From Gammaproteobacteria bacterium (GTDB taxonomy: Bacteria > Pseudomonadota > Gammaproteobacteria > GCA-001735895), in assembly GCA_050306135.1 (NCBI GenBank), contig JBNLGQ010000042.1, forward strand, positions 1,233-65,232: a DNA stretch of 64,000 nt, read 5' to 3'. The stretch's first letter is position 1. Each line of letters opens with the position of its first letter. Below are positions 22,000-42,235 of this stretch, piece by piece. The notes beneath the pieces were generated by a model that searched no databases, had not been told where the DNA came from, and worked only from the letters and a program-made list of their open reading frames with translations. Made by a program: the position numbers and the translations under genes.

Positions 22000-22014
22000 T
22001 TTCATCACATTGCT

Positions 22015-23982
22015 ATGAATTTTTTTGCCTCTCAGGCACAGGCTCGCAGGAATACTTTTCAACTGGTTGTTCTGTTTATTCTTGCGGTCTGCTGTTTCAT
22101 TGTGCTGACAAATCTGGTTGTGATGCTGGCAATAGGTTTTTTTAAAAACTCTCAAATCACCGACTTGCAAACCATGATCCAGAACATGGACTGGTGGAGA
22201 TTCGGTATGATCGGGCTGGCGGTATGGATAGTGGTATTAGCAGGCAGTATCTATAAAATCATCGCATTATCAGCGGGTGGTAGAGTGATTGCTGAGGCCC
22301 TTGGGGGCAAACTTGTTTTACATAATTCTACTGATCGAAAACATCGACGTTTACTCAATGTAGTCTCTGAGATGGCGATAGCATCCGGAACCCCTGCACC
22401 ACCTGTTTATATCATGTCACAGGAGCACGGTATTAATGCCTTTGCTGCCGGCTACTCTAGCCGTGATGCCGTGATTAGTGTCACTCAGGGCCTTGTTGAT
22501 CATTTAAACCGTGAACAGTTACAGGGCGTTATAGCGCATGAATTCAGTCATATCTTTAATGGCGATATGCGACTTAACATCCAGTTGATAGGCGCCTTAA
22601 ATGGCATTCTGATCATCGGCATCATCGGTTATGAATTGCTGCGCTTACCATTTCGAGGATCGAGTTTCAGGTTAGGTAGTAGAAGCCGTAGTAGCGGTGG
22701 CGGAGATGCCAGACTAACCTTTGCCCTGATTGCTCTGGGGCTAAGCCTGATGATTATTGGCTACACCGGGACCTTTTTTGGGAATATGATCAAGGCAGCG
22801 GTCAGCCGACAACGTGAATATCTTGCCGATGCCTCTGCCGTACAATTCACCCGCAATCCTAAGGGGCTCGCAGGAGCATTAAAACGAATTGGAGGATTAG
22901 ATACAGGGTCACGTATGCAGGCCTCTGCTGCTGTCGAAATCAGCCATGCCTTTTTTGCTCAGGGGGTTTCCAGCTTTGTTGAATCTCTATTTGCCACACA
23001 CCCTCCGCTGATTAAACGTATAAAGCGAATCGATCCCTACTGGAATGGACATTTCATTACAAAAGATAGAATAGATACGGAAATGGCGAACGAGAGTTAT
23101 AAGGGAGCGGTTTCCTCTTTTGCAACTGATTCCTCGTCAGCACCAACGTCTACTACCCAGGAGTTAAATCAGGCTGTGCTAGCTACAGGCGAGCTAACGC
23201 AACAATCCATCGAACTCGCACGTACCCTGTTATCAGATATCTCCGCCAATATTCGTCAAACAGCTGAAGAGCCATTCGGTGCCAGGGCTGTCATCTATGC
23301 TTTACTCTTAGATAAGGCATATCCCGTTCGTGTTAAACAACTGGAACAGTTGCAGTACCATGCCGAGCGCGAGGTTTACCTGTTAACGCAGAAGATCATG
23401 TCAGAGATGGATGCCCTGGATATTCGTCTGCGCCTGCCCCTGATAGATATCACAATCCCTGTACTGAAGCAGCTTTCTAACCATCAATACCAGGCCTTCC
23501 GAGACAATGTCTCTTCTCTCATGGATGCCGATGGAAAAATTAATCTGATGGAGTGGTCACTACAGAAAATCCTGTTCAATCATCTAGATCAAAATTTTCA
23601 TAACCAGCCTAAGCTCATAGCCAGGTCTGCCGGGTTATCACAGCTCAAGGTAGAGGTTAGCATTGCTTTATCATTGTTAGCTATTGCTGGTCATAGCAAA
23701 ATTGAACAGGCGAGAGCAGCCTTTAAGACTGCGGTAACTCATCTTAAACTGGAGCATATAGACTTCATTGAGAAAAAAAAGTTGAAACTCTCCGTAATAG
23801 ATAATGCTTTGCAGAAATTACAGCACATGTCTTTAATGAATAAGATGGCATTACTTGAGTCCTGCATATTATGCATAGAACATGACCAGGTCAGTTCCAG
23901 CAGAGAGGTTGAAATATTGCGTGCATTTTCATCCGCAATAGACTGCCCTATTCCTGTGGTGGTTAATTCAAATCGGCCATAA
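22015..23982 (+). CDS. M48 family zinc metalloprotease (HtpX-like) with long C-terminal extension
   Basis: HExxH zinc motif (IAHEFSHIFNGD), several TM segments and about 300 extra C-terminal residues. Sits 15 nt downstream of the LemA gene. Confidence 0.75.
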   Translation: MNFFASQAQARRNTFQLVVLFILAVCCFIVLTNLVVMLAIGFFKNSQITDLQTMIQNMDWWRFGMIGLAVWIVVLAGSIYKIIALSAGGRVIAEALGGKLVLHNSTDRKHRRLLNVVSEMAIASGTPAPPVYIMSQEHGINAFAAGYSSRDAVISVTQGLVDHLNREQLQGVIAHEFSHIFNGDMRLNIQLIGALNGILIIGIIGYELLRLPFRGSSFRLGSRSRSSGGGDARLTFALIALGLSLMIIGYTGTFFGNMIKAAVSRQREYLADASAVQFTRNPKGLAGALKRIGGLDTGSRMQASAAVEISHAFFAQGVSSFVESLFATHPPLIKRIKRIDPYWNGHFITKDRIDTEMANESYKGAVSSFATDSSSAPTSTTQELNQAVLATGELTQQSIELARTLLSDISANIRQTAEEPFGARAVIYALLLDKAYPVRVKQLEQLQYHAEREVYLLTQKIMSEMDALDIRLRLPLIDITIPVLKQLSNHQYQAFRDNVSSLMDADGKINLMEWSLQKILFNHLDQNFHNQPKLIARSAGLSQLKVEVSIALSLLAIAGHSKIEQARAAFKTAVTHLKLEHIDFIEKKKLKLSVIDNALQKLQHMSLMNKMALLESCILCIEHDQVSSSREVEILRAFSSAIDCPIPVVVNSNRP

Positions 23983-27420: not shown

Positions 27421-27702
27421 TCAAGCTCCTAAACACCCATCAACAACACTTACAATTTCATTTTCTATTTGAGTACTCAGCATGCGTAACATCATACTAA
27501 GATTTACTTTGAGGTGAAAATTACCTTCGTCTATTTCAATGCTTCCGTTGAGTCCCTTGCGGCGAAATAACAGGATCTGGTCACTTTCCCATTCTGATCG
27601 GACTTCGAATCTGTTCTCTATATCTTTTTTAAGTTCATCAATCTTGAGCTTTAATTCATCTATCGAAAATTGATGGGAGCGAGTAATAGTAATTGCTGAC
27701 AT
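27421..27702 (-). CDS. Small PHA-system-family (TIGR02610-like) protein of unknown function
   Basis: 93-aa protein matching the conserved pattern of that family (RSH..., F.V.W..., L.F.R.G..G.I, L.V.L.ML). It is the last gene of the operon, 11 nt after the giant gene. Confidence 0.5.
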   Translation of the reverse strand: MSAITITRSHQFSIDELKLKIDELKKDIENRFEVRSEWESDQILLFRRKGLNGSIEIDEGNFHLKVNLSMMLRMLSTQIENEIVSVVDGCLGA

Positions 27703-27713
27703 TGCCTGTGGTT

Positions 27714-30700
27714 CTATCTTTTCTGTGGAGATCTACTTTGTTGGATCTGGGGTTTTACCTGCTTAGCTATGCTATCTAATTTACGATTTATCTCTGACAT
27801 ATTTTTATGTGTACCCAGATCTAAATCCAGCTTGCCATTCATAATTCGAACTAGAGGTTGCAGCGTATTCTCAAGTACATCAGCCAGTTTATCGGATGAT
27901 GTACTTCCTGAGTCATTAGGACTTTCTTCCTGAATACCCGCATTGATATTATCGACCAGTTGATTGATCGCTTTGGCTATATCCGAAAGTGCCTTCTGAT
28001 TTTGTTTTCTGTTAATAGCGATCTCTCGACTCTTTACTTCATTTTCTTCACTTCGAGATTTTTCAGCGCTGTCACGCCATGCATTGATACCACCAACCAG
28101 ATCATTAAGCTGTACTACAATTTTTGATCCGGTATCGGCATCATCACCACCCATTGCCTTATTGCGCATAAAATCAGCTTTGATTTGAGCCCAGCGCTGC
28201 TGTTGCTCTTCACTCATAGTCTCTCTAATTTCTACCAGTTTGAGTAAATTAGCCTCTGTGCCAGTAGTGAGTAATTGAGCCTCACCCTGATAGTGATCAT
28301 CAACCAGACGTATCAACTCATCGTCACTCATGATGGAAGATATCTTTTCCGCCATCTTATTCATGTTCCGATACGATCCCTGTAACTTGAATATTGGTTC
28401 GGTGCGGTATTTATCATCCTGTGCACTTGCTGCGATGTAGGCCTGGTTTACTTTCCAGACCACATTCTGGATTATTTTCATTTTCTGTAACACATCGACT
28501 ATTTCTTTAGTTTCTGCGGAGCTGTACTGATGTGAAAAATCGGTTGTTGCGACAGCAACCCCATTAGCCATGTCGATGAATTTGTAAACGTCGCTCATTT
28601 CACGCGTTGCAAGCGGTGCTAATACAGGATTAGATGTTAATGAGTTTTCGATATAACTGAGAGCAAACACATCTTCCTTGCCACTTAAGACATCACCCAG
28701 ATTATAAATATCTGCCCGGTTAGCAAGCATATCGGGTATCTCAAAGGCTTCACCCGATTCGGTATAAGGATTACCTGCCATGACGACACAAAACTTCTTG
28801 CCGCGCATGTCATAGGTTTTGGGCTGTTTTTTCCAGACCCCTTCAATACGCCTTGTACCATCAGAGAGTGAAATAAACTTTTGCAGAAATTCACTATTGG
28901 TATGCTGTATGTCATCAAGGTATAACATGACATTGTTGCCCATCTCCAGGGCCAGGTTAAGTTTTTCCAGCTCCTGTCTGGATGCACTGTTATCTGCCTG
29001 TTCTGGATCAACCGAGGTAATTGAGTGGCCGATAACCGGACAATTTATCTTCATAAAGATAAGCCCAAGTCGGTCGGCAACATATTCCATCAAGGTAGTT
29101 TTACCGTAACCTGGTGGAGAAATCATCAATAGCAGGCCCATTAAATCGGAACGCTTTTTATCGCCGACCGTTCCTATCTGTTTGGCCAGGTTATCACCAA
29201 TTAAAGGGAGATATACTTCGTTGATAAGCCGATTTCTGACAAAAGATGACAATGGTTTTGCCTTAAATTCTTCCAGCCTTAATTGTTGTCTCTTTTCAAC
29301 AATTATCTGGTGGCGTTTTTCTAAATAATTCTGATAAGCCGGTATTACCTGCTCGTGGTGAGTGCGATTACTATCCAGAAATTGATCAAGTTGAATGGTC
29401 AGTTGACGATTTTCAATCTTGTCATGCGTGCCGAGTAAGCCTTCGATATTGAATTGAATATCGCTCTCTCTATCCTCGCGATCTATTCTTTGTTCTGCGT
29501 TTAGTATTCCAATAGCTTCAACCACAAAACTTTTGAACTGCGTTTTTTGTTGTGACTGTATAAACGCATTGAGCCAGCTCTCTGCCAGTGCCCAGCGTTT
29601 GCCTACCTGCCCTTTCATATCATCTAATGCTTTTTGATAATCACGCCAGATGTTATGCGTCTTTAAGTGTGTAATAAATTCATCACAAAGTTGTCGTGCA
29701 TATTTCGTGGTTGCAAAGCTGATTCTTTCCTGTGCTAGCTCATCTGTTAAATATTCACTGGCACTAATCAGTAGACGCTGATCTTCAGGCAAGTGATGCT
29801 GAGTGACAAACTGCAACATGTGTTCAGCAATTTCATCTCGCAGAATATTCTGGGCATTGGTATCAGAAAAGATACTGGCCATCTGTGCTGCATTTCTGGC
29901 TCGCTGATGCCATAGTTTTTGCTCGTCTCCATTTTGAGTATTAGCCCAATAGATTGCGCCTAGTCCGCGAGCCGTTGGAGAGTATTTGAAGACTCCGGCG
30001 GTTTGGTACACCGGTACTATTTTAATAAGAATTAAGCTGGCATCATGATCATGTATGCCTTTTTCATATCCTTCCTTATAACGTGCAGAGGCAAAGCTTG
30101 TTACCAGTTTAAGCATATCTTTCTGGTCTGCCGCTGCGATACTTAAGGTCTCCCAGCTAATATTATCGTTATTATTTTCTGCTGCCTTAAGGATGCTATA
30201 GGCGAGATATTCTGCACGGCAAACCTGCTCATTTTCAGAGGGGATTTGCATAGACCAGTAATCTCGCATGCTGTTAAGCTCTGCATTGTCGAGAGCTTCA
30301 TAGAAATCGGTACCCGTTAAGCGGATATATAATTCATCGCCTCTGGGTAAAACGGTTAAATCCAGCTCCTGTGTATTGACCGAAAACTTGTGTCTCGGAC
30401 CCAGTTTGATAACCTGACCATCGGCTTCATACAGATCACTTTTATCTCTCAGTGAGCGAATCGATTGTTGCCTGACTGATTTTAACTGTGAATCCAGATC
30501 TTCGGCTTTTACGCTGTCATCTAATGCCCTTAATTTAGCGATGATATCGTTGATTTTTCCGACCAGACTGTCGGCACTAAAAAAGGTATTTAATTCATCC
30601 TGTGTTGAGAAACGTTTGACTCGACGCTGAACGCTTTGCAATATGCGTTCTCCCGCATCGGCGAGTGATTGTGCCTTGCGTTGCTGAGCATCGATTAAAC

Positions 30701-32993
30701 CCTGCTTATGTTCTTCAAATGTTTCGAATATTTCTTCGCGTTTTTTGACTATATCAGCAATGAAATCATCATAGTCTCCAAACTCAGCTTCGAGTTCTTC
30801 CATCTGTACCAGAAGTCTGGAAAACTGTTCATCACTTTTTGTCGGCGTGGTAGACATGCCGAGTGCGTTGTGAATACTCTGCTCCAACAGTTTGAGTCGT
30901 GCTGAAAACTGCGCAGTGGCTTCTGCGCTGCCCATGGTTTTACGTTGATGCTCAAGTTCTGCGTTTTGCTGATTGAGGCGGCTATATAGCTCAGAAACAG
31001 CATCGACTATTCTGGTTTGAACGGTGGCGTCTTCTACTTTTAATGTCGCCATCATTTCAGAAATCAGATCCAGAGATTGAGCCAGTTTCTGTAGCGTTTC
31101 AATATGAGGTTTTAATTCAGCGTTGGTTTTGCATTTAATACGTTCCGCTGCAACACTATCGAGTACCTTGTAATAACTTTTTAAAGCGCCTTCGGAACCC
31201 AGAAACTCAACCGTATGTGTATTAAGCGTTTGCTCAACTTTGGCAATATCAGTATCTAATTGTTCAATCTTATCAGTGTCGATATAGCGATATGATTTTA
31301 TCGTCATCAAATGACCACGATGCTGTCTTATGCTGAATAATCCATCGACATATTCCTGTGGGGAGTGCCAGCTATCAGGTTCGATATTACGTATTATTTC
31401 GAGTTGAGCTGCTTCTGCTTCTGTCAGTGCCTTGGTCGATTGCGCCCGAATACTTTCAACTTTTTCATATTCGTCTATCACCAGCTCGGCAGTATTTCCT
31501 ATCTGACGCAATAGTTTTGCAATTGCAGCCAGATCGGGCGAATCTAACCAGTAATAATTATCGAAAATTTTATGACAGGATTGACTGATACGATTATAGT
31601 GATCGGCTGATACATCCTCTAACAGCATACTTCTGCTGATGCTATATAGCTCAGAGATGCCTCGAACCAGTTCGGCATTACCAATTTTTCCATAAAAGCT
31701 TTGCGATGGTGGCTGTTTACTGGCATGGCTATCGCTGTAATAAGGCGTTTGCCAGATTTGTAATGGATGTACTCTGCCCGGTTCATCTTCTGCATAAAAG
31801 ATGATCATGCGTCCATCATCATATAAACCATAGCCATGGCCCTTTAACGGGTTCTGTAATGATTTTTCAATCAGATTGTATCCATACAGTACGATGACAT
31901 TGGTTTCCGGCTGGTAAAATACATACAGTACATCCTCACCATTAGGTGAACGCATCGAACGCTTGAAGACCAGATTTTCCAGGTTTTCATCGAATGTTTT
32001 AGTTTCTCCGGTGGTTAAATAATAACCGCCTGGAAAAATGATGCCCTGGTCTTCCGGTAGTTGTAAACAGGCGCCACCAATCGCATCAATTCGTTGTACA
32101 TCCTGTGTGTTTCGATTAAAGACCAGATAACGAAAATTTTCTTCGCGATAGGGTTTTATCTTTAACAGGATGAGCTGGTTAAGATTCGCGTAGAAAAATT
32201 CAGCATCGTCCAGAGACTGGTTTTCCTCTTCAACGGATTCTGAATATATACCGAGTCCGACATCAGTATTGTTTTCTACCTTAATGGTAATATCGCCACG
32301 AGAAGCATCAACAAACAGGGTATCCAGTATATTGATATGCGGATTACGTCCATCTACGACATCATCACGTTGGCACTCTACCCACTCAAAATCGTGACTT
32401 GCCGGTAACTGGATATCGCGCTCGCCACGGTTATCGATATACTCAATCTGTTTACCATCCGCAGAAACTTCCCAGCGGAATACACGAACATCTGTCAGCT
32501 TTTCACCAATCTGAAATGAGGCTAGCAACTTGTTATTTTTGAACACCAGCTGGGATAAAGCCGTATTTTTATAATAGGCATACAGCTCCTGAAATTCGGT
32601 TTGAAAGCGACTGTCGGCCAGAAAAGAATCTTTGACTGCAACCGATGTTAAATCATAGGCACCGTCTTTTTCATCGAGCATGTAGAGTGAAAGTACATCT
32701 TCGATACGCGTTTCTTTTCTCAGACCGATATGAACGTTATACCCAAACAGCACATATTCGCCGACCACAACCAGATCTTTTGCCTGACAGTTATTTTCAG
32801 TACGCAGTCGCAGGCGACCAAGAACTTTCATCTCGGTACTACCGAACTCTTGCTGACGTGCTGTATTGATGTCGCTGACTAACTTATCAAGTGATTGCTG
32901 CTGCTCGGTTAAGCGCTGACGAATAACTTCGTAAGCCCCACCCTCAGCCACTGCCTGTTCGGATATCGATGTCTTTTCAGTTTGATCTGTCAC
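27714..32993 (-). CDS. Giant (1759 aa) coiled-coil protein with MoxR/AAA_5-like AAA+ ATPase module
   Basis: Walker A MISPPGYGKTTLMEY at about aa 1290-1300 (nt about 29094-29120), Walker B VMLYLDD 56 aa later, and sensor-1 VVMAGNPY. A MoxR-like box follows (AGNPYTESGEAFEIPDMLANRAD, compare NP...G..LPEALLDRF). Flanking regions are dominated by heptad-like coiled coil. The roughly 450-aa N-terminal region is aromatic-rich and non-coiled. Confidence 0.7.
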   Translation of the reverse strand: MTDQTEKTSISEQAVAEGGAYEVIRQRLTEQQQSLDKLVSDINTARQQEFGSTEMKVLGRLRLRTENNCQAKDLVVVGEYVLFGYNVHIGLRKETRIEDVLSLYMLDEKDGAYDLTSVAVKDSFLADSRFQTEFQELYAYYKNTALSQLVFKNNKLLASFQIGEKLTDVRVFRWEVSADGKQIEYIDNRGERDIQLPASHDFEWVECQRDDVVDGRNPHINILDTLFVDASRGDITIKVENNTDVGLGIYSESVEEENQSLDDAEFFYANLNQLILLKIKPYREENFRYLVFNRNTQDVQRIDAIGGACLQLPEDQGIIFPGGYYLTTGETKTFDENLENLVFKRSMRSPNGEDVLYVFYQPETNVIVLYGYNLIEKSLQNPLKGHGYGLYDDGRMIIFYAEDEPGRVHPLQIWQTPYYSDSHASKQPPSQSFYGKIGNAELVRGISELYSISRSMLLEDVSADHYNRISQSCHKIFDNYYWLDSPDLAAIAKLLRQIGNTAELVIDEYEKVESIRAQSTKALTEAEAAQLEIIRNIEPDSWHSPQEYVDGLFSIRQHRGHLMTIKSYRYIDTDKIEQLDTDIAKVEQTLNTHTVEFLGSEGALKSYYKVLDSVAAERIKCKTNAELKPHIETLQKLAQSLDLISEMMATLKVEDATVQTRIVDAVSELYSRLNQQNAELEHQRKTMGSAEATAQFSARLKLLEQSIHNALGMSTTPTKSDEQFSRLLVQMEELEAEFGDYDDFIADIVKKREEIFETFEEHKQGLIDAQQRKAQSLADAGERILQSVQRRVKRFSTQDELNTFFSADSLVGKINDIIAKLRALDDSVKAEDLDSQLKSVRQQSIRSLRDKSDLYEADGQVIKLGPRHKFSVNTQELDLTVLPRGDELYIRLTGTDFYEALDNAELNSMRDYWSMQIPSENEQVCRAEYLAYSILKAAENNNDNISWETLSIAAADQKDMLKLVTSFASARYKEGYEKGIHDHDASLILIKIVPVYQTAGVFKYSPTARGLGAIYWANTQNGDEQKLWHQRARNAAQMASIFSDTNAQNILRDEIAEHMLQFVTQHHLPEDQRLLISASEYLTDELAQERISFATTKYARQLCDEFITHLKTHNIWRDYQKALDDMKGQVGKRWALAESWLNAFIQSQQKTQFKSFVVEAIGILNAEQRIDREDRESDIQFNIEGLLGTHDKIENRQLTIQLDQFLDSNRTHHEQVIPAYQNYLEKRHQIIVEKRQQLRLEEFKAKPLSSFVRNRLINEVYLPLIGDNLAKQIGTVGDKKRSDLMGLLLMISPPGYGKTTLMEYVADRLGLIFMKINCPVIGHSITSVDPEQADNSASRQELEKLNLALEMGNNVMLYLDDIQHTNSEFLQKFISLSDGTRRIEGVWKKQPKTYDMRGKKFCVVMAGNPYTESGEAFEIPDMLANRADIYNLGDVLSGKEDVFALSYIENSLTSNPVLAPLATREMSDVYKFIDMANGVAVATTDFSHQYSSAETKEIVDVLQKMKIIQNVVWKVNQAYIAASAQDDKYRTEPIFKLQGSYRNMNKMAEKISSIMSDDELIRLVDDHYQGEAQLLTTGTEANLLKLVEIRETMSEEQQQRWAQIKADFMRNKAMGGDDADTGSKIVVQLNDLVGGINAWRDSAEKSRSEENEVKSREIAINRKQNQKALSDIAKAINQLVDNINAGIQEESPNDSGSTSSDKLADVLENTLQPLVRIMNGKLDLDLGTHKNMSEINRKLDSIAKQVKPQIQQSRSPQKR

Positions 32994-33082
32994 GTGTATT
33001 CCCTGCCATTAGTTACAGTCATTAGCTTGATCTGGGCACTCTTGATATACAGAGTGCCCGGGAAGATTGGCATGTAGATTGA

Positions 33083-35074
33083 TTAAGAATTTAAATCAGC
33101 TTTGGTATCTTCACTATCTGACCCAGGAATGGTTTTGGGTACATTACTGGCACCGCCCATGAGCTTTTCCATCAAAGCCTGAACAATCGGACTTTTCTCG
33201 ATAAAACCGTTCACTGCATTTCCGGCACCCATGCCTTTGGCAAGCTTGTCGAAGTAATCGCCCTGGCCACCGACGATATCGATATTTGCATTTTTAAGCG
33301 CAGCAGCCAGTACATCTGCCTGATCTCCTGCAATTTCTTTATTGGCTTCGATAGAGGCCATAACTTCCTGTAGATGAACATCAAGATTAAGGCGGAATTC
33401 TTCGAACTCACGAGACTCTTTATTCATATTGTTCATTGCGGCAAATTTTTCTACCAGAGCGTCGGCTTCAGCCTTACCTTTTTCGCGTAAAACTTCAGCA
33501 TGACTCATTCCGATTTCCTTATTAGCTACGGCTTCAGCTTTGCCCAGTTCCTCATTACCGCGGGCTTCTGCAGTTAATTTCTCTTCCAGTACTCGGGCTT
33601 CTGCAAGACCTGCTTTTTCGGATGAAATAGCTTTCGCTTCCTGAACATGCGCTTCGGCAATGCCTTCCTTCTCAGTGGCATCCGCTTTCGCTTCCATGAC
33701 TCGAGCTTCTGCCAACCCTTTAGCAGCAGCGGTTGCCTGCGCACCTTCAGCTAATTTCTTCTCAGCTTCAGATTTTTTCGATGCAGCTTCTAATTCGGCC
33801 TGTGCCATTACATTAATTTCACGGGCTTTATGTGTTGCTTTCTTTTCATCCGCTTCTGCTCGCATCACAGTATGTACCAGTTCTTCCTGAGCGGACGCCT
33901 CGGCTGCTAGCACCAGCACCTGTTTATTACGGTCTGCTTCAGAAACTTCTTTAACTTCTTTAATACGCTCTTCTTCTTCGGTTACTTTCTTTTCAACCGC
34001 GATTCTTTCACTGATGGTCTGCGCAATGACTTTCTTTTCTTCTTCAAGTGCCTTGTCTTTTTCAATAATGGCTAATTCAACTTCGCGATGTCGATTAACC
34101 TCTTCCATTTTCTGCGCCCGGATGACCTTTTCCTTTTCGATCACAACGGCACGTTCGCGGTTTTGTTCTGCTATCTCGACCTGACGAAGTTTGACCTGAT
34201 TACGAATTTCGAGTTGCTCATTGGTTTCGATGGTAGCCTGATCCGCTTTAAGACGCTCTTCTTCCTGAACCTTTTTGGTTTCTGCAGCTTCACGCGCCTG
34301 TACAGTTTCTATTTCACGTTTCTGCTTTGACTCAGCATCGACCTGCTGACGCTCTAAAGCCAGCATGGCTTCGCGGGTTTCAACATTCTTTTTGGTAATG
34401 GCGAGGGTTTCATCTTTTTCCAGACGGTTAGTCTGGACATTCTGGATAGCGGTGATTTCAGTGATTCTACGAATACCTTCTGAATCAAGAATATTAGTGG
34501 GATCGAGCTGGGACTTCGGTGTTTGTTCCAGATAATCAATTGCAACGTCTTCTAATACATAGCCATTCAGATCATCACCAATCACCTCGATAATTTTCTC
34601 CCTGAACTTGATTCTGTTTTCAAACAGGTCAAGAAATACCATGTTTTTACCCACGGTCTTTAATGCCTCAGAAAACTTGGCTCCGAATAATTCGTCTACC
34701 GCATCTTTATCTGACGCCCGGTCTACACCAATCGATTTGGCAACTCGAAGCACATCTTCTCTGGTTTCGTTCACTCTCAGGTAAAACGCCACGATAATAT
34801 CTGCACGAAGATTATCCTGACAAATCAGGCCATCTTTCCCTCTACGGTCAATTTCCAGGGTAATGAGAGAAATCTTCATGACTTCCATCTTGTGGATAAC
34901 CGGCCACACAAGACCACCTGTAAAATGCACCTTGGGCTTTGATGACATATCGTTGACGATTAATGCGTATCCCTGAGGTACTTTTTTATAAAAGGCACTG
35001 AAAATCATCGCTAAAGCGACTATAGCGATTAAGATAATGCCGCCGTAAGTTAATATTGGTAATAGTAATTCCAT
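33083..35074 (-). CDS. yqiK: Flotillin-like SPFH/Band-7 protein (YqiK family) with long C-terminal Ala/Glu-rich coiled-coil repeats
   Basis: N-terminal TM anchor followed by an SPFH/PHB domain. The C-terminus has tandem EA repeats (LAEARVMEAKA... GLAEARVLEEK). Sits immediately downstream of an NfeD-like yqiJ homologue, as in the E. coli yqiJK operon. Confidence 0.75.
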   Translation of the reverse strand: MELLLPILTYGGIILIAIVALAMIFSAFYKKVPQGYALIVNDMSSKPKVHFTGGLVWPVIHKMEVMKISLITLEIDRRGKDGLICQDNLRADIIVAFYLRVNETREDVLRVAKSIGVDRASDKDAVDELFGAKFSEALKTVGKNMVFLDLFENRIKFREKIIEVIGDDLNGYVLEDVAIDYLEQTPKSQLDPTNILDSEGIRRITEITAIQNVQTNRLEKDETLAITKKNVETREAMLALERQQVDAESKQKREIETVQAREAAETKKVQEEERLKADQATIETNEQLEIRNQVKLRQVEIAEQNRERAVVIEKEKVIRAQKMEEVNRHREVELAIIEKDKALEEEKKVIAQTISERIAVEKKVTEEEERIKEVKEVSEADRNKQVLVLAAEASAQEELVHTVMRAEADEKKATHKAREINVMAQAELEAASKKSEAEKKLAEGAQATAAAKGLAEARVMEAKADATEKEGIAEAHVQEAKAISSEKAGLAEARVLEEKLTAEARGNEELGKAEAVANKEIGMSHAEVLREKGKAEADALVEKFAAMNNMNKESREFEEFRLNLDVHLQEVMASIEANKEIAGDQADVLAAALKNANIDIVGGQGDYFDKLAKGMGAGNAVNGFIEKSPIVQALMEKLMGGASNVPKTIPGSDSEDTKADLNS

Positions 35075-35141
35075 TGGTAACGCTCCTAAAAATAAGTGTT
35101 CATGTTAAATGTAAATCTGTTAAACCTGTTTGTTTACTGTA

Positions 35142-35810
35142 TTAATCTAAATGTTGTTTAAAATCTGCTTCACTAACCACGTTAAAAACCTGTTTCTCTT
35201 TATTGTGTTCAATCACTACTACCCTGTCTCCGGTGTTAAAGGTCTGATCCCCCACTGCCCTGACTTTCACAATCAGACTCGCTCCTTCAAGCTGACATTC
35301 TGCTTCACCAAAATCTGCATCCGCGCGGCTACTTCTAATACGACAGGTCGCCCCTAACAAAGACTTTGATATAGGCGCCTGGTTTACTTTTCTAAACAAT
35401 CCTTTAAGTGGTTTTATCATGGTTGCTGTAACTGGAATTGAAACCAAAAAACTCACGATGGCTACAGCAATATTTATCGCAACCTGAACCAGTGAAATAA
35501 ACTGCGGAAAAGTCGGGATAAGAAGAATAAGGAAGTAGCAGATAATCCATGCGTTGAGTACTAACAGGCTGATCACGATAGTGATCGGTACACCTGTTAA
35601 ACCCAAAGTGGTCAATAGCCCTGCAATACCACCTATTTCAGAAATATCACCATCCAGCTCCAGATCCATATCGATATCTACACCAACATCAAATGCATCC
35701 ATGTCAAAAGTCCCGGTAAACGCTAGCAGCCAATATCCAACAACTACCACCAGTAAGGTGGTGTAAATCACTGTTGGAAAACTGCTTATATTGACTAGAA
35801 AACCATCCAT
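35142..35810 (-). CDS. yqiJ: NfeD-like inner-membrane protein (YqiJ/DUF1449 family) with C-terminal OB-fold
   Basis: Three TM helices. An acidic loop (DMDAFDVGVDIDMDLELDGD) and a C-terminal beta-rich segment are typical of NfeD partners of SPFH proteins. Confidence 0.65.
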   Translation of the reverse strand: MDGFLVNISSFPTVIYTTLLVVVVGYWLLAFTGTFDMDAFDVGVDIDMDLELDGDISEIGGIAGLLTTLGLTGVPITIVISLLVLNAWIICYFLILLIPTFPQFISLVQVAINIAVAIVSFLVSIPVTATMIKPLKGLFRKVNQAPISKSLLGATCRIRSSRADADFGEAECQLEGASLIVKVRAVGDQTFNTGDRVVVIEHNKEKQVFNVVSEADFKQHLD

Positions 35811-35812
35811 TT

Positions 35813-36385
35813 CTAATTTCCTCGAATTATTTTACGCATTGTTTTATATTTCCTACCTGCCCATAGCCAGGCACAAAAAACACCAGATATGAATCCAAAT
35901 ATATGTCCTTCAAAACTAATCCCTGGGCGAAAGTCAAACAGAGTGAAGACCGCACCGCTATAAATTATCAGGGTGATAACTGCAATCGCAATATTTTTAA
36001 AACTACGATTAAAATACGCATTACTGATCAGATATCCCCAATACCCCATAACTAACCCGGAAGCACCCGCGTGTAACCCATCTCTTGCAAAAATCCACAC
36101 CAGTGACCCGGTGAATAGCATGATTAAAAATGTAACACGAGGCAACTTATTGAGCGAACTGACAAAAAAACCAAGAACCAGCAGCGGTATGGTATTGGAT
36201 AACAAATGCCCAATACTGTTGTGCAGAAAGTGCATGGTGATTATGCCGTATAAACTACCCACTTCTCTAGGGCGTAGTGCATAATGATTTAAGCCATGAC
36301 TTAAAAGCAGATTCACTATTTCTATACCCCATAATAAGACTATATAAATTAGTAATAATTTATAGTCCTTCATTGCCTTTCGCAT
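35813..36385 (-). CDS. Rhomboid family intramembrane serine protease
   Basis: Six TM helices, a catalytic GxSG (HAGASGLVMGY) and a TM6 His motif (HIFGFISG). Lies 2 nt from yqiJ. Confidence 0.75.
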   Translation of the reverse strand: MRKAMKDYKLLLIYIVLLWGIEIVNLLLSHGLNHYALRPREVGSLYGIITMHFLHNSIGHLLSNTIPLLVLGFFVSSLNKLPRVTFLIMLFTGSLVWIFARDGLHAGASGLVMGYWGYLISNAYFNRSFKNIAIAVITLIIYSGAVFTLFDFRPGISFEGHIFGFISGVFCAWLWAGRKYKTMRKIIRGN

Positions 36386-36389
36386 TAGA

Positions 36390-36719
36390 CTATTGCTTTT
36401 CCTCTTTCATTACGTTGGCAATAATCTCTTTTGCTGCCTGCTCTTTAATAGCCAGTTTATCCTCTGGATCGAGTTTATAAATATTAGCTAAAATCTCATA
36501 ATCTTTAGCTGTCAATGATATGGTCAACCTGGGTCGAACCGGCTTTTTCCTCGGCAAACCCAAAATTTCACGCATTTGGTCCGATGGTGACAAACCATTT
36601 TGGCTAGCCATTAACTTTAGCTTTTTTTGCGCTTCGGTTGAAATATCGAAAGCGACCTGGGTTGCCTTGACTGCTTTCTTTTCATTTTCCCAGCGTTCGG
36701 GTTTACCTTTTTTCATCAA
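36390..36719 (-). CDS. Small DNA-binding-like protein with two tandem ribbon-helix-helix (CopG/Arc/MetJ-type) repeats
   Basis: Two repeats follow a beta-strand/helix/helix pattern: VAFDISTEAQKKLKLMASQNGLSPSDQMREILGL and RLTISLTAKDYEILANIYKLDPEDKLAIKEQAAKEII. The family assignment is inferred from pattern only. Confidence 0.45.
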   Translation of the reverse strand: MMKKGKPERWENEKKAVKATQVAFDISTEAQKKLKLMASQNGLSPSDQMREILGLPRKKPVRPRLTISLTAKDYEILANIYKLDPEDKLAIKEQAAKEIIANVMKEEKQ

Positions 36720-36741
36720 CTATCCCCGTACCTGCTCAGGT

Positions 36742-37428
36742 TTAACTTTTCGCTTTTAACCGTGCTAGAACATCTTCCGCCGAATGCTTTTCATTTTTTA
36801 TACCAGCAGCTTTCAGCTTATTATCCAGCTCATCACCACCAAGTTCCTTGCGCAGTTGAATGCCAGCATTGAGCTTATCCTGTTCAGATTGTTGCTTCTG
36901 TTTAATTCTTTCTAACGATTCACGAGCAGAACCGATAGCGCTATCATTGGCTGTGACAGTTTGAGTAACCGATTTAGTAGCCTGTTGAACTGACTCTCTA
37001 GCCTTGGCCATTGCCAGCTCTCTTTCATGCTCGGCGATAATTTTTTCGGCTTCCTGTATCTGAGACTTCAATATCGATACATTCTGATCATAAGTGGCAA
37101 GTTCATTACTCACTTCCTCAGCAGAAGCTTCCAGCTTAGCAATCTTACCAGCAACTTCTAAAGCAAGCGCTTCATCCGATTTTTCCAGGGCTTTAACTGC
37201 ATAGCCTTCATTTTCGGTTATCTTTTCCATGATGTCTGCCAGTTTTCTTTCAGTAGCCATCTTCTTTGCCACTATTTCAGTCAAGCCTTCTTTAGCTTCG
37301 GCAAGACTGGCTTTTGAATCTTCGATTTCCTGTTCAAAAATCCTCATCGCCTGTGTATCGACAATGGCTTCGCCCAGTTCTCTGGCTCCACCGCGTAAAG
37401 ATGTTAATAATTTTTTCATCACGTTCAT
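36742..37428 (-). CDS. PspA/IM30 family protein (YjfJ-like; bacterial ESCRT-III superfamily)
   Basis: 228-aa all-helical protein with the PspA-like N-terminal amphipathic helix and coiled-coil hairpin (LGEAIVDTQAMRIFEQEIEDSKASLAEAKEGLTEIVAKK...). Confidence 0.8.
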   Translation of the reverse strand: MNVMKKLLTSLRGGARELGEAIVDTQAMRIFEQEIEDSKASLAEAKEGLTEIVAKKMATERKLADIMEKITENEGYAVKALEKSDEALALEVAGKIAKLEASAEEVSNELATYDQNVSILKSQIQEAEKIIAEHERELAMAKARESVQQATKSVTQTVTANDSAIGSARESLERIKQKQQSEQDKLNAGIQLRKELGGDELDNKLKAAGIKNEKHSAEDVLARLKAKS

Positions 37429-37468
37429 TTCTTTCTTCCTCTTAATATTAAATCCAGATAAGTATTGA

Positions 37469-37876
37469 TTACTTAATGTAATCTTCTAAGGCCTGCAGTG
37501 TATCTATTGAGTTGGCTGCCAATGTAATCAATTCCTGGCAGATGCTTTCATTATTAGACTCACGATCAAGCGCTCCAAATATGGTGTAATAATCATCCAC
37601 CAGAGCAAACGCACTCAATGGCATGGGTACATTCAGCTCCAGTAGATATTGATTTAATTCAGCCTCCATTTCCGAATGAATCTCCTGTTTGGTGAATAGA
37701 TAAGAAATACATAATATTTGAGTTTCAGTCACGGTAATGAAGATCGGAATTTCCTCAAGCCCACTGACCTCAACCCTTAACACCTCCTGTCCACTATTCA
37801 TCGGTAAACAATTAAACCGATAACCCTTAAATTCACAGTCTGACAAATGTTTAGACAAATCTTGCAATACACTCAT
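37469..37876 (-). CDS. YjfI-like DUF2170 protein
   Basis: 135-aa protein whose C-terminal region (DDYYTIFGALDRESNNESICQELITLAANSIDTLQALEDY) resembles what I recall of E. coli YjfI, the gene upstream of the PspA-like yjfJ. This comparison is from memory and unverified. It is the first gene of the operon, with an AAGGAG RBS at 37881-37886. Confidence 0.55.
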   Translation of the reverse strand: MSVLQDLSKHLSDCEFKGYRFNCLPMNSGQEVLRVEVSGLEEIPIFITVTETQILCISYLFTKQEIHSEMEAELNQYLLELNVPMPLSAFALVDDYYTIFGALDRESNNESICQELITLAANSIDTLQALEDYIK

Positions 37877-37890
37877 GATAACTCCTTGCT

Positions 37891-37935
37891 TGACATATTA
37901 TGTCACTAAAGTAGCGCTCTCGACATAATATGTCA
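37891..37935. promoter_or_regulatory. Two palindromic operator-like sites TGACATA-t-TATGTCA (37891-37905) and GACATA-a-TATGTC (37922-37934), centres 30 bp apart
   Basis: Read directly. Both are perfect 6-7 bp inverted repeats with a 1-nt centre. They lie 5 nt upstream of the RBS of the first operon gene, inside the 300-bp divergent intergenic region. Confidence 0.55.
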
Positions 37936-38175
37936 AGAATAATTTTGTGAATATTCCAGATAATTTCAGGTTTAGTCATTTTCGATAATCTGGTCAAACA
38001 TTAGAGTATAGACAAGCTACCTGAAAGCAGGTATTAAACAATCAACTGATTGATATCAAGAATGCATAAAATCATCATGAAGCACTTTATATGTAACTAT
38101 TGACTACCACGTTATTTGCACCGGTAACATAATCGATTGTAAGCTCAAATCAAATTAACTCGCTCAAATTATCAG

Positions 38176-39084
38176 ATGAAGGAACTAATAGAAAAAAGCA
38201 TAGAGACTGTTCGCTCGGCAAGCGATAAAGCCAGCAATGAAATCTCTGCAGGGTTTATTCTCATAAAGGAAAAGATTAACGGACTACCGATATTTGTATC
38301 ATCTGAGACATCTAATAAATACAAGAACATAAAGTATGATGAAAAACACTATTTCGTGATCCCTTATCACCTTTCAGAGCATAAATTCGCACTGCATACG
38401 ATGAGATGCCTGCCTGAATCAGTCCCTGAAATAAATAATCTCCCCAAAAGAAGAGTGTTTCATTTTGCTAACGAACATTCTGAGGCTATGCTCAAGGAGT
38501 ATATGCGACAAAGCGCAATTGATATTGTGCTTGATGAGAGAAAAGACAATCTAAACAGCCTTCAATCCCTGGCAAACGAAATTGATTCTCTGGACAAAAA
38601 ATTAACCTACGGGATGCTGCTGGTTGGCGGTTTAACCGCTATAGCAAATCCACTGGTAGGTGCAGGTATAGCCGCAAAGGCATTACTTCCAGGTGTAGGA
38701 GGCTTGCTGAATAAATATGGATTACGTCCTACCGGTGAAAAACTTAGCAAATATCAACTCGATAAATCTATCAGGGAAGCAGAAGATTCTGTTAACAAGG
38801 AGTTTGAGAATTCAAATACCCTAAAAGTAGTAAACCCGATATTACAGGAACTAGAGCTAGCGCTGCGTACCACTGAAACCGAGCACGACCCTTTGCTTGA
38901 TCCGAATTTATCGAATGGCAGTATCCCTGAGCTTAGCGACGAAAGATGGCGAACATTAACAGAAGTTGCCATCTGCAATGTATATAAAGACGTTTATGAA
39001 AACCCTGACTTGCATCAGAAAGCAAACCTCGGCCCTGAGGATATACGGTGGTTAAAAGTATTGTTCGAAGTGAACAAGAGCTAA
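38176..39084 (+). CDS. Hypothetical protein with central glycine-zipper hydrophobic segment
   Basis: No recognisable family. Hydrophobic segment GMLLVGGLTAIANPLVGAGIAAKALLPGVGGLL. The gene is AT-rich (roughly mid-30s % GC by eye). Confidence 0.5.
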   Translation: MKELIEKSIETVRSASDKASNEISAGFILIKEKINGLPIFVSSETSNKYKNIKYDEKHYFVIPYHLSEHKFALHTMRCLPESVPEINNLPKRRVFHFANEHSEAMLKEYMRQSAIDIVLDERKDNLNSLQSLANEIDSLDKKLTYGMLLVGGLTAIANPLVGAGIAAKALLPGVGGLLNKYGLRPTGEKLSKYQLDKSIREAEDSVNKEFENSNTLKVVNPILQELELALRTTETEHDPLLDPNLSNGSIPELSDERWRTLTEVAICNVYKDVYENPDLHQKANLGPEDIRWLKVLFEVNKS

Positions 39085-39158: not shown

Positions 39159-39695
39159 ATGCACTGTCCGAAATGTAAAACGATTATTCTTAAGCCAACC
39201 AAACTAGATGACAGCCTGCCCGTATTTGGCTGCCCTGAGTGTGGTGGATCACTGTTATCTCTTCTCTATTATAGAGATTGGGCGGAAAGAGTTACCCTCG
39301 ATTCTTCTGATTTTGAATCTAGTAGTGAGGTAGTAGAAGATGCTGACACCAAAACTTCTTTGAGCTGTCCTAAGTGCAGCCGAATTATGACAAAGTACTC
39401 CATATCTGGATCGATACATAGTCGTCTAGATCTGTGTGGCAATTGTGACGAGGCCTGGCTTGATGGTGGGGAATGGCAATTGCTTAAATCTCTGGAAATG
39501 GCAAACAGGTTACCAAAAATTTTCACCGAACAGTGGCAGCAAAAGGTTCGAAGCGAAAAAATGGCATTGAGTAAGATCGAACGCCTGAAAAAAGTTATTG
39601 GTGAAATTGATACTGAGAAAGCCGTAGAAATAAAGAAATGGATTAATGAGCACGCTAATAAGGCTAGCATTATTCAATTCATAGGTTCTGATTAG
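39159..39695 (+). CDS. Tandem TFIIB-type zinc-ribbon protein (zf-TFIIB/PF13453-like) with C-terminal coiled coil
   Basis: Two CxxC...CxxC ribbons (CPKC...CPEC; CPKC...CGNC). The second is followed by the family-typical WLDGGEW motif. Confidence 0.55.
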   Translation: MHCPKCKTIILKPTKLDDSLPVFGCPECGGSLLSLLYYRDWAERVTLDSSDFESSSEVVEDADTKTSLSCPKCSRIMTKYSISGSIHSRLDLCGNCDEAWLDGGEWQLLKSLEMANRLPKIFTEQWQQKVRSEKMALSKIERLKKVIGEIDTEKAVEIKKWINEHANKASIIQFIGSD

Positions 39696-40494: not shown

Positions 40495-40968
40495 TCACAC
40501 AGGATATATGACAGAATTAGGCACCATTTCGCTATCGTATACGGCTCTACGGCTTTTAAATTTCAAACCCTGTTCTGTCCTTTGAACTTCATCAATATAG
40601 CGACCTGCATTAAATACCGTCGTCATACCATCGTATTTGGTGCGCATAACAGAATAATTGGCTTCAGAATATATGACATCACCTTCCACTTTGATCACAT
40701 GCGGAGCACCGACAATGTGGCGTTGATAATAGGGGTCATAGAAAAGGGTTTCCTTGATACCATACACGCGGTCTACCAGCATTTCCCTGCTTTCAAGATC
40801 CAGCAGGCCCAGCGGCATACCTCGTTCATAGTTCTCACGCGGTTGTAGGCTATACACACAATCCTCAGTGAAAAATTCAGGCCACTCGTCCCAGTTATCT
40901 GAATCCACAACCAGAGAGTATTCGGCATAAAGGTTTAATAGTTCGTAATAGGTTTCGAAATTGATCAT
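40495..40968 (-). CDS. Ring-hydroxylating oxygenase small (beta) subunit (NagH-like)
   Basis: NTF2/SnoaL-like beta-subunit fold. The start is at the ATG at 40968 (MINFETYY) with a GGAGGT RBS, 4 nt after the alpha-subunit stop. Confidence 0.8.
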
Positions 40969-40972
40969 AGTC

Positions 40973-42235
40973 TTATACCTCCATCGTCTTGCGCCAGTAG
41001 TTGTACATGCCACGTATCAGGGTTTCAGTAACCATGTGCTCGCTATCTGCGATATCAGTGCCACCCATCTCAACAAGCGTACGATGTGATGGTTTTGTCT
41101 CAAAACCTTCCTGTGAGAACTCGATGACTTCACCGTCATCGGCCGATACGAATCCTGCAGGACCAAACAGATTGGCCTGTATTAAACGACGTTTCACCAT
41201 CTCTTCATCATCATCTTCATAACAGAAATGCGTCCAGACAAAATCAAAGCTATCTTTACCATTGGGCTGTATGTGTCGGGTAGAGACACTATTCACCTGT
41301 TGCTGGAAAATGACTGAAGGGAAAACCGTTGTCATTACAGCCGTTGGACCGCCCCACCAGGACTCCTGAACGATATCCAGCAGTCGGTTATCGTTAACCT
41401 TCATGTCTTCCTTGAAGCTTTCAATACCATTGACCACCTCGTCTACCTTACCGCCCTTGCCTCTTGTAGAGATCATTGCCGCATGACGAAACTTATCATC
41501 CATACGTAATTGCGATTCATTGTCCGCACGCCACAGGCCAAAGGTTACAAACCAGGTATGTAACAGTCCGGGATGGTAAGGATCTTTGATATTTTCCTGC
41601 ATCAGCTTCCAGTTACCGGGAATACGTTGTTTGCGATAGCCGAGGATCTTTAGCTTTCGACCATCAAAGGTACGATCAAAATACTTTAATATTTCTGGGC
41701 CTAAAAAATCTTCTAAAGACTCTACATTATGATCAAAGGAAGCAAACACCACGCCATTGCGTATAGCAACCTTGAGCTTTGTTAAACCGTGATCCTTTGG
41801 GTGAAAATCCTTTGGCATACCACCATTGACCTTACCGTCTTTCTTGACCCCACGTAAAAATGGTACGCCCTGTAAATCGCCATTATGTGCATAATTCCAC
41901 TGGTGATAAGGACAGACAAAATCCTTGCGATTGCCATGTCTCTCACGGCAAAAGCGCATACCACGATGTGCACAAACGTTTTCTACAACAAAAATTTCAT
42001 CATCCTTTCCACGCGTCATAATAACGGAACGCTCACCCACAAATGTGCGTTTGAAGTCTCCGTGTTCGGGGATCTCGGCTTCTAAGCCGACATAGCACCA
42101 GTGGTTTGAATAAAAAAAACGTTCTAACTCTTTCTGGTAAAGATCTTGCGAGGTATAAGCCCAGAAAGGGATACGACTAGTGCCCTGTTGTTTCCACTTT
42201 TCTTCTACGGGAAAAGCATTTGATGCTTCATTCAT
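40973..42235 (-). CDS. Ring-hydroxylating oxygenase large (alpha) subunit, salicylate-5-hydroxylase/anthranilate-dioxygenase-like (NagG/AndAc family)
   Basis: Rieske CAHRG...CPYHQWNY and catalytic iron motif DPYHPGLLH. 420 aa. Confidence 0.8.

Follow-up and report, generated by a model that had tools for sequence, protein, structure and literature searches.

What would a bacterium do with an operon that sets a PspA/IM30 protein, a flotillin, an NfeD-like membrane protein and an intramembrane protease beside a AAA+ protein of 1759 amino acids (aa)? Such an operon lies in the 64-kb stretch of gammaproteobacterial DNA analyzed here (the window, 64,000 nucleotides (nt) in full). It was read in an initial annotation as a candidate undescribed system, a single machine in which the giant AAA+ protein would act on PspA as Vps4 acts on ESCRT-III. 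To our knowledge, neither PspA/Vipp1-type polymers nor flotillin/SPFH cages, both much studied as organisers of membranes, have a known energy-consuming partner. For this reason the operon class stays interesting, and the search for such a partner would most obviously begin with a conserved operon in which PspA and flotillin are coupled to a AAA+ protein of this size. Here we find that the operon is real and conserved, that the system itself is already in the literature with one instance under experimental study, and that the ATPase is tied to flotillin and its NfeD-like neighbour rather than to PspA.

Eight co-directional open reading frames (ORFs) run head to tail on the minus strand at 27421-37876. 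In order of transcription they are separated by 40, 22, 4, 2, 67, 89 and 11 nt, confirming the ORFs, strand and gaps of the initial annotation, whose upper bound of 37935 also covers the promoter region upstream of yjfI. NCBI gene calls (GCA_050305115.1, JBNLES010000095.1) gave identical ORFs, save that the third gene begins one codon later, and with that start the second gap is 25 nt. The features of the operon, in transcription order, are:

37892..37936, minus strand: promoter/operator region with two 13-bp palindromes and a -35 box
37469..37876, minus strand: YjfI/BacA-family protein (DUF2170, CesT/Tir-like chaperone fold), short form, 135 aa; Pfam DUF2170 at 7e-33
36742..37428, minus strand: PspA/IM30 protein of the YjfJ subfamily (bacterial ESCRT-III superfamily), 228 aa; Pfam PspA_IM30 at 2e-36
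36390..36719, minus strand: small basic protein, probably a tandem ribbon-helix-helix (RHH) protein, 109 aa (NCBI: 108 aa, from the ATG at 36716); sub-threshold RHH matches
35813..36385, minus strand: short rhomboid intramembrane serine protease, 190 aa; Pfam Rhomboid at 2.6e-18
35142..35810, minus strand: YqiJ/YuaF-type (short NfeD2-like) membrane protein, 222 aa; hhalign match to E. coli YqiJ
33083..35074, minus strand: YqiK-type flotillin (SPFH2), 663 aa; Band_7 at 2.9e-10 on residues 1-230
27714..32993, minus strand: giant soluble BacE homologue, 1759 aa, GTG start; DUF3686 at 3e-192, with DUF7902 and AAA/AAA_5
27421..27702, minus strand: small PHA_gran_rgn-family protein, 93 aa, 11 nt past the giant; Pfam at 9e-21, TIGR02610 at 2e-15

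The initial calls of a DUF2170 protein, a PspA/IM30 protein, a rhomboid, a AAA+ module and a PHA-system protein were all confirmed with Pfam. The PspA_IM30 domain scored 126 bits against a Pfam cut-off of 33.9, and the protein matched E. coli YjfJ with 36% identity (E 1e-30) and E. coli PspA with E 0.3, a pattern of similarity that assigns it to the YjfJ subfamily. The flotillin call was also upheld, by a Band_7 match in the N-terminal 230 aa (40.9 bits, cut-off 23.6) and by similarity to E. coli YqiK (5e-40); the protein consists of a transmembrane (TM) anchor at residues 7-25, an SPFH/Band_7 domain and a long EA-rich coiled coil. Full-length flotillin gave no Pfam match, possibly due to HMMER composition filtering on the coiled coil, and PDB sequence searches using the full length and the N-terminus returned noise or P-loop matches only. 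The call of an NfeD-like YqiJ protein stood in part: a 33-member profile of the family aligned to E. coli YqiJ with an hhalign probability of 90.3% (E 1.5e-6, 142 columns), while the protein and four orthologues gave no Pfam match and the family profile no PDB sequence match. YqiJ and YuaF are classed in the literature as NfeD homologs with minimal conservation (PMC2636767). TM segments were predicted only in the rhomboid, in the N-terminal part of the YqiJ-like protein (its C-terminal domain being beta-rich and soluble) and in the flotillin anchor. None were predicted in the giant, PspA, YjfI or the RHH protein, which are probably cytoplasmic.

Gene neighbourhoods were surveyed using the window proteins as queries, by tblastn and then by iterated hidden Markov model searches on six-frame ORFs. 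A scan of one genome per species identified at least 583 giant-like proteins, and analysis covered the best 80 of their loci, mostly from Proteobacteria; counts are given for a well-flanked set of 67, in which the sequence extends at least 6.5 kb upstream of the giant gene and at least 3 kb beyond it. Genes for YqiJ and flotillin were found upstream of the giant, on the same strand, in every locus of this set, and the yqiJ gene always lay directly upstream of the flotillin gene (with a gap of 67 nt in the window). PspA was encoded upstream in 49 loci (73%) and YjfI in 48. A rhomboid gene was present in 21 (31%), mostly just downstream of the giant, and a gene for a PLD-like protein lay downstream of the giant, likewise in 21/67. 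A TerB-like protein of ~80 aa (14 loci) and a double zinc-ribbon protein (13 loci) were encoded at variable positions, the RHH protein appeared in six loci together with YjfI-PspA, and PHA_gran_rgn followed the giant in one. Linkage to the giant is strongest for flotillin/YqiJ, weaker for YjfI/PspA and weakest for the rhomboid, PLD, zinc-ribbon and RHH genes. The core order comes from different species in 67/67 loci and, judged by gene order, recurs far beyond chance. The closest relative (locus L091, 86% identity) keeps seven of the eight genes in the same order.

Six distant relatives of the giant (29-35% identity, three of them from genomes of 73% GC) were looked up one by one. The flotillin gene lay directly upstream of the giant in five of these loci, YqiJ was detectable in three, and PspA was adjacent in one, in convergent orientation. 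Overall, flotillin was found beside the giant in 72 of 73 loci. Because flotillin and YqiJ accompany the giant in all 67 well-flanked loci and PspA in only 73%, the motor's constant partner is the flotillin scaffold and not PspA. With PspA in ~73% of loci and in one of the six distant ones, a Vps4 for PspA was not supported as the lead idea that the initial annotation had made it, and the survey shifts the question of the ATPase's partner from PspA to flotillin.

The two groups of genes can also be separated. In four loci (L023, L065, L066 and L070) YjfI-PspA-RHH is transcribed divergently from YqiJ-flotillin-giant, and in Pleionea sediminis (L093) the YjfI-PspA unit sits in a separate operon of the spermine-synthase type, 4 kb away. 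The invariant unit is flotillin(-YqiJ)-giant, and YjfI-PspA is a frequent but separable companion. This separability weakens both the idea of a Vps4 for PspA and the picture of an indivisible machine, and describing the operon as a single machine was too strong. The conserved neighbourhood nevertheless makes it very likely that these genes form one functional system at the cytoplasmic face of the inner membrane.

The system had been described before, and the initial annotation's view of it as undescribed could not be kept. Ravi et al. (2024, mSystems) delineated an operon class comprising a CesT/Tir-like YjfI, a YjfJ-type PspA, YqiJ/YuaF, a TM-band-7-flotillin and a novel AAA+ protein with coiled coil and beta-propeller (PMC11237479). 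In that work PLD is sometimes present, abbreviated flotillin-YqiJ-AAA+ operons without PspA are more widespread, and ATP-dependent membrane remodelling is proposed for the PspA-AAA+ associations (PMC11237479). The core domain architectures of this class are identical to those of the window. An instance under experimental study is the 'biofilm-associated cluster' bacABCDEF of P. aeruginosa (PA3732-PA3727; PMC2587700, PMC10948618). Wallart et al. (2024) obtained products of reverse transcription PCR over every junction from bacA to bacF, found that BacB-F accumulate 6 to 13.5 fold in a bacA mutant, reported BacA (a long form) as a negative controller of the operon, proposed a sigma-54 site and solved the crystal structure of the CesT-like BacA (PMC10948618). 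Biofilm and virulence defects were reported for the cluster by Mace et al. in 2008 (PMC2587700), and a 2026 study names BacD PaFlo3 and describes BacC as a short NfeD (PMC13086221). In the surveyed P. paraeruginosa locus (L019), genes for DUF2170 (206 aa), PspA (231 aa), a YqiJ-like protein (213 aa), flotillin (688 aa), a giant (1746 aa) and PLDc_2 (235 aa) are followed downstream by yaeQ and recJ, an order that matches PA3732 down to PA3725. Because the domain content of the window agrees point by point with the published operon class, and because of this match in gene order, we assign the locus with high confidence, as judged from domain content and gene order, to the Bac-type envelope system. 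The papers on the class leave the giant ATPase uncharacterised (PMC11237479, PMC10948618, PMC2587700, PMC13086221), and PA3728/PA3729 were found in the literature in omics tables only.

The giant is 52% identical over its full length to the P. paraeruginosa BacE homologue. It begins with an N-terminal helix and a 7-blade-like beta-propeller (aa 56-415, DUF3686; nt 31749-32828), which lead into a helical region. The middle, ~800 aa long, forms a helical bundle and coiled coil and contains DUF7902, and the C-terminal part carries a single divergent AAA+ module (aa ~1280-1470; nt 28584-29156) followed by a coiled-coil tail. AlphaFold2 models were built from an alignment of 28 sequences. In the N-terminal model (mean pLDDT 83.5) the helix, the propeller and the helical bundle extend to aa 700, and the C-terminal model (pLDDT 66.5) has a AAA core at 76-88 amid helices of lower confidence. 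The Walker A motif SPPGYGKT (1292-1299), the Walker B motif LYLDD (1357-1361; nt 28911-28925) and the NP...R motif (1408-1426) are invariant across the 28 aligned members of the family. The initial description of the AAA+ module as MoxR-like is borne out as to the module (AAA/AAA_5) and not specifically supported as to the MoxR affinity; the domain forms a separate, divergent clade that cannot be clearly placed with either MoxR or Vps4. No MIT domain or Vps4-type AAA module was found in the giant, whose best structural match differs from Vps4, and a PDB sequence search returned P-loop or noise matches only. No paper mentioning DUF3686 was found in the searchable literature. The giant belongs to an uncharacterised family, rather than to a well-characterised one with an unrelated, non-membrane function.

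As a separate observation, the propeller and stacked helical hairpins of the giant (aa 56-700; nt 30894-32828) gave weak Foldseek matches to the clathrin heavy-chain terminal domain and linker and to IFT-A, with otherwise generic propeller matches. The TM scores of ~0.1-0.2 are too low for a coat-protein relationship, and the resemblance in these models reflects the shared layout of a propeller followed by helical repeats.

The companion unit of the window consists of the DUF2170 gene and, directly downstream on the same strand after the 40-nt gap, the YjfJ-type pspA gene. The window YjfI matched E. coli YjfI at 9e-10 and the NCBIfam BacA model with 46.8 bits. Since this score is far under the model's cut-off of 300 bits, the protein is a homologue of BacA and not an equivalog. 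Upstream of yjfI the 13-bp palindrome GACATA-N-TATGTC occurs twice, at 37922-37934 and again at 37892-37904; the former copy overlaps a TTGACA -35 box (37931-37936), and an AAGGAG ribosome-binding site lies at 37882-37887. Allowing one mismatch, these two are the only sites of the motif in the window. Loci with an RHH gene (151 kb in total) had 11 matches to the motif, each of them in the promoter region of yjfI or yqiJ. Loci without one (1.67 Mb) had 2, which both lie a short way upstream of pspA in Aliikangiella (L082), and the motif is enriched ~60-fold in RHH-bearing loci. It was also found upstream of yjfI in L091 and in Pleionea (L093), where the RHH gene belongs to the YjfI-PspA operon, and in the divergent arrangements the shared intergenic region carries it. 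The sites occur in several genera, usually paired and overlapping the -35 box (L065 6898-7083; L023 7017-7181; L091 3058-3102; L093 18322-18372; L082 5578-5621).

The tandem-RHH call of the initial annotation drew sub-threshold matches only, across seven orthologues (RHH_1 at 7.6e-4, RHH_10, FitA-like at 6e-3, RHH_9 and RHH_5), and the RHH profile had no match beyond noise in the PDB. The alignment of the orthologues displays two strand-helix-helix repeats, and the 109-aa protein is probably a tandem RHH protein. A role in DNA binding is supported by the association of its gene with conserved palindromic operators, making it a probable autorepressor of its own operon at the upstream palindromes. 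RHH-bearing loci always encode a short YjfI (134-166 aa, as in the window), and RHH-lacking loci with YjfI nearly always encode a long form (204-276 aa) that in nearly every case has a highly conserved, basic N-terminal extension, KSSAHYQRxYRxRLREQGLVKKEVWILPE (loci L001-L082). The exception, a 124-aa YjfI without RHH in L014, looks like a truncated ORF call. This division suggests that the YjfI extension has the same regulatory function as the separate RHH protein. No usable sigma-54 -24/-12 site for yjfI was found in 37877-38175 (TGGCAC-N5-TTGC-like, at most 2 mismatches); the two weak matches in this interval point the other way, and over the whole window such sites are as frequent as expected by chance. 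Read from the promoter sequence, a sigma-70-like -35 box with operators replaces the sigma-54 promoter here. In this clade, the RHH protein and its operators would stand in for the BacA extension and sigma-54, a regulatory switch that is among the new points of this analysis.

Also added here is that one short rhomboid subfamily is a recurrent, tightly coupled accessory. The Rhomboid domain scored 67 bits (cut-off 22.6), with the catalytic motifs intact (H55-x4-H60-x3-N64, G107-A-S109-G and H161-xx-G-xxx-G), and the same short subfamily (~187 aa) was found in the 21 related loci that have a rhomboid. In the clade of the window (the window, L091, Aliikangiella and Pleionea) the rhomboid gene is directly upstream of yqiJ, with a 2-nt gap in the window and, in Pleionea, an overlap of 4 nt. 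It directly follows the giant in Pseudomonas, Cellvibrio and their relatives: in 15 loci it starts no more than 42 nt from the giant's stop codon, which it overlaps by 4 nt in nine. As the linkage survives this change of position, it argues for a functional tie of the rhomboid to the core; in two loci the rhomboid is present and PspA absent. We found no paper tying a bacterial rhomboid to a flotillin/NfeD operon in the searchable literature, which is not proof of novelty. A feature of the flotillin TM segment specific to rhomboid-containing loci was looked for and none was found, and the flotillin TM segment was therefore dropped as a candidate substrate.

Two genes that diverge from the operon were also considered:

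39159..39695, plus strand: double zinc-ribbon protein, 178 aa, divergent here, a possible accessory component; Zn_ribbon_TFIIB at 3.6e-11
38176..39084, plus strand: 302-aa protein with a Gly-rich hydrophobic hairpin at aa 147-178, divergent, of uncertain membership in the system; no Pfam match

Homologues of the zinc-ribbon protein lie beside the operon in the 13 loci counted above, usually in the order giant-rhomboid-PLD-zinc ribbon. In Marinobacter (L070 754-1842) a 362-aa fusion joins two such zinc ribbons to a rhomboid domain, a hint that the zinc-ribbon protein may partner the rhomboid. The 302-aa protein was found in the same position in the closest relative, L091 (87% identity), and not in the other surveyed loci; being kept only there, it was rejected as a conserved component. 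PHA_gran_rgn also follows the giant in Aliikangiella coralliicola, is cut down to a 46-aa remnant after the giant in L091 (13292-13429) and was not found in the other 80 loci surveyed. It was rejected as a conserved component on the grounds that it is clade-specific and decaying in the nearest relative.

Other neighbours were noted in individual loci. In a metagenome-assembled genome from the Zetaproteobacteria (giant 77% identical), two tandem, near-identical PDDEXK_2 (Rpn/transposase-like) genes lie between flotillin and giant (L001 8036-9936, L092 6036-7936), and PspA, YjfI and the rhomboid are absent from this locus. Genes for a Ser/Thr kinase, a PP2C phosphatase and an FHA protein directly precede rhomboid-YqiJ-flotillin-giant in Pleionea sediminis (L093 1904-4640) and are a possible phospho-regulatory input. 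Further recurrent neighbours of the giant are the TerB-like (EF-hand-like) protein of ~80 aa, sometimes encoded between flotillin and giant, an MscS-like channel, and an M90 (MtfA-like) peptidase with SEC-C (L015 15435-16867, L080 15629-16768, L005 17158-17394, L002 15830-16663).

Taken together, these observations are best explained by a Bac-type system of two separable modules at the cytoplasmic face of the inner membrane, a reading to which we give a probability of roughly 0.6. In the first module, a sigma-70-type promoter with two palindromic operators, probably repressed by the operon's own RHH protein, would drive expression of the CesT-like chaperone YjfI and the YjfJ-type PspA. YjfI would keep PspA soluble until the membrane is stressed, whereupon PspA would polymerise on the membrane and seal it. 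In the second module, which is the invariant core, the YqiJ/NfeD-like protein and the YqiK-type flotillin may build a cage-like scaffold, as in the SPFH-NfeD structures that have been solved, and a patch of membrane would be marked by it. The beta-propeller and the long helical arm could hold the giant to this scaffold, and its single AAA+ ring could spend ATP on putting the scaffold together, opening it or taking it apart, or on pulling clients out of it. This specific picture of a motor acting on flotillin is tentative. By analogy with pairs of SPFH scaffolds and proteases, the rhomboid may be an accessory intramembrane protease in or at the patch, and PspA might be drawn to the patch that flotillin marks and there stabilise or seal the membrane; experiments in B. 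subtilis have shown such recruitment of PspA by the SPFH protein YdjI.

A bolder form of the same reading would have the giant devoted to remodelling flotillin/NfeD cages at the expense of ATP, in the role of a 'Vps4 for SPFH scaffolds'. With a translationally coupled rhomboid and a recruited, ESCRT-III-like PspA, it would be the bacterial counterpart of the SPFH-rhomboid-AAA+ hubs for membrane quality control in eukaryotes. Eukaryotic SPFH-rhomboid pairings are found in mitochondria (SLP2-PARL-YME1L) and in the endoplasmic reticulum (erlin-RHBDL4-p97). We regard this form as speculative; if true, it would describe an energy-dependent machine for the control of SPFH microdomains, the first known from any organism.

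Several points weigh against the two-module reading and its motor. The survey covers the best 80 of at least 583 relatives, mostly from Proteobacteria, and in one distant relative (L088) the giant occurs without a flotillin nearby. Every mechanistic step that involves the ATPase or the rhomboid is one that we infer, as is any contact that flotillin, YqiJ, PspA or the rhomboid would make with the giant, and co-transcription in this organism is deduced from the short gaps and from Pseudomonas. Walker B reads DD and not DE in all 28 aligned giants, so that ATP hydrolysis may be slow or regulatory. In Aliikangiella (L082) the operator motif is present while the RHH gene is absent from the 25-kb locus, and the pairing of RHH protein and operator is for this reason not proven. 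Also, deletion of paFlo3 reduced biofilm by only ~20% and produced no strong stress phenotype (PMC13086221).

Among the alternatives, the giant could be the missing bacterial analogue of Vps4, disassembling or remodelling the YjfJ/PspA polymer while flotillin/NfeD serves as a mere platform. PspA shares the neighbourhood in 73% of loci and is convergently adjacent to the giant in one distant lineage, Ravi et al. propose ATP-dependent membrane remodelling for the PspA-AAA+ pairs (PMC11237479), and reviews list no bacterial Vps4 equivalent, as the initial annotation had also held (a 2025 review states that a Vps4-like ATPase appears absent in bacteria; PMC7619361). Additionally, the C-terminal helix SAxDVLARLK is shared by the window YjfJ and E. 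coli YjfJ and could be a docking motif. A MIM1-like motif at the C-terminus of YjfJ was considered and set aside, as the spacing, by eye, is off the MIM1 consensus. Given the separability of YjfI-PspA from the core, we consider this alternative unlikely. We hold the same view of a membrane-protein quality-control hub in which the cage would corral damaged or orphan proteins, the rhomboid clip TM segments, the giant extract them and PspA seal lesions, for which erlin-RHBDL4-p97, SLP2-PARL-YME1L and HflK/C-FtsH offer analogies. The locus might instead hold two independent systems that happen to adjoin and share no function: YjfI-YjfJ(-RHH) would be a Psp-like stress unit, and flotillin, NfeD and giant would make up the other. 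This would account for the four divergent loci, the separate operons of Pleionea, the YjfI-PspA dyad in an unrelated spermine-synthase-type operon (PMC11237479) and the 1.2 Mb between the corresponding pairs in E. coli. However, the units are adjacent in ~73% of species representatives, across Gamma- and Betaproteobacteria and in several orientations, which implies selection for linkage; they are co-transcribed and co-regulated in Pseudomonas (PMC10948618), and the divergent loci carry the operator motifs in their shared intergenic region. Independence is accordingly improbable.

Two further proposals take the locus away from membrane maintenance. An anti-phage or abortive-infection device at the membrane, an alternative that the initial annotation had raised, might be suspected from the discovery of PspA as a phage-shock protein, the frequency of large coiled-coil ATPases in defence systems and a weak IetA match (E 0.0026). 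A PADLOC scan of all eight proteins, however, returned coiled-coil or P-loop noise only (E at least 8e-4, 12-15 bits), GC content is flat across the locus, the flanking genes are housekeeping or sensory rather than defence islands or mobile elements, and the position of the locus on the chromosome is stable across species; a defence function is very improbable. That the giant is a DNA-repair ATPase with irrelevant membrane neighbours is suggested by the title of Pfam PF12458 and many NCBI names, by weak RuvB P-loop matches, by recJ beside the operon in Pseudomonas and by a single-HKD PLD/Nuc-like gene or a helicase gene downstream in some loci. The similarity to RuvB is nevertheless confined to ~45 P-loop residues (E 0.002-0.05), Pfam detected no DNA-binding or nuclease domain in the giant, no paper mentioning DUF3686, nor any other support for the database name, was found in the literature searched, and its invariant neighbours are membrane proteins, leaving this proposal with hardly any probability. 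The PADLOC result, the flat GC content, the housekeeping flanks and the invariant membrane neighbours essentially exclude both phage defence and DNA repair.

Scans for terminators and promoters gave counts at the shuffled expectation; no terminator-like site lay between the genes of the operon, and all those on the minus strand were intragenic. A Rieske-type ring-hydroxylating oxygenase cluster (alpha and beta subunits and a ferredoxin reductase; 40495-43247, minus strand) flanks the locus without a mobile-element signature and, as housekeeping or catabolic genes, is unrelated to it. A LemA-family gene is directly followed, about 3.5 kb past the downstream end of the operon, by a gene for a 655-aa M48 peptidase (21403-23982, plus strand); an MCP gene and a solute-binding protein gene lie between this membrane-associated pair and the operon.

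Set against known systems, the locus shares parts with several. E. coli K-12 has homologues of the window YjfI, YjfJ, YqiJ and YqiK in yjfIJKLMC and yqiJK, and the initial statement that these modules occupy two separate loci is correct: yjfIJ, which belongs to a polyamine-type operon, and yqiJK are 1.2 Mb apart, and no giant ATPase, rhomboid or RHH gene is annotated beside either pair. B. subtilis pspA-ydjGHI (samGHI) resembles the window in that membrane adaptors and an SPFH protein are encoded with PspA, and this SPFH protein, YdjI, is reported to be needed to bring PspA to the membrane (PMC8581546). In contrast to the window, it uses another SPFH subfamily and other adaptors (YdjG, YdjH/TPM), without a AAA+ giant, YjfI or rhomboid. 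The ESCRT-III/Vps4 systems of archaea and eukaryotes, like the window, encode an ESCRT-III-superfamily polymer beside a AAA+ ATPase, and the logic proposed is that ATP drives the control of a polymer bound to the membrane. The AAA+ protein of the window is not an orthologue of Vps4, lacking MIT, having another best structural match and comprising 1759 aa with a beta-propeller, and its invariant partner is flotillin and not the ESCRT-III homologue. The window also resembles systems that combine an SPFH scaffold, by co-encoding or in a complex, with AAA+ activity and a membrane protease, such as HflK/C-FtsH and Pyrococcus PH1511-PH1510 (NfeD-ClpP) (PMC13086221, PMC2636767), and SPFH-NfeD cages have been solved according to work cited in PMC13086221. 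Here, by comparison, the ATPase is without a protease domain, the rhomboid is optional (31% of loci) and a physical pairing is putative.

The closest likeness is to the published operon class itself. The main text of Ravi et al. (PMC11237479) contains no mention of rhomboid and gives neither a mechanism nor co-occurrence statistics. The bac operon encodes homologous DUF2170, YjfJ-type PspA, YqiJ-like, flotillin and giant proteins in the same order as the window. The window is without the PLD-like BacF and without the reported bac sigma-54 promoter, and has a short YjfI and a separate RHH gene where the bac operon has a long BacA with a basic N-terminal extension. It also differs in the rhomboid gene inserted before yqiJ and in PHA_gran_rgn after the giant. 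The variant features of the window are accordingly the rhomboid before yqiJ, the separate RHH regulator with its operators, and PHA_gran_rgn in place of PLD, and the system they modify is testable in tractable organisms: P. aeruginosa, Cellvibrio, Hahella and Marinobacter.

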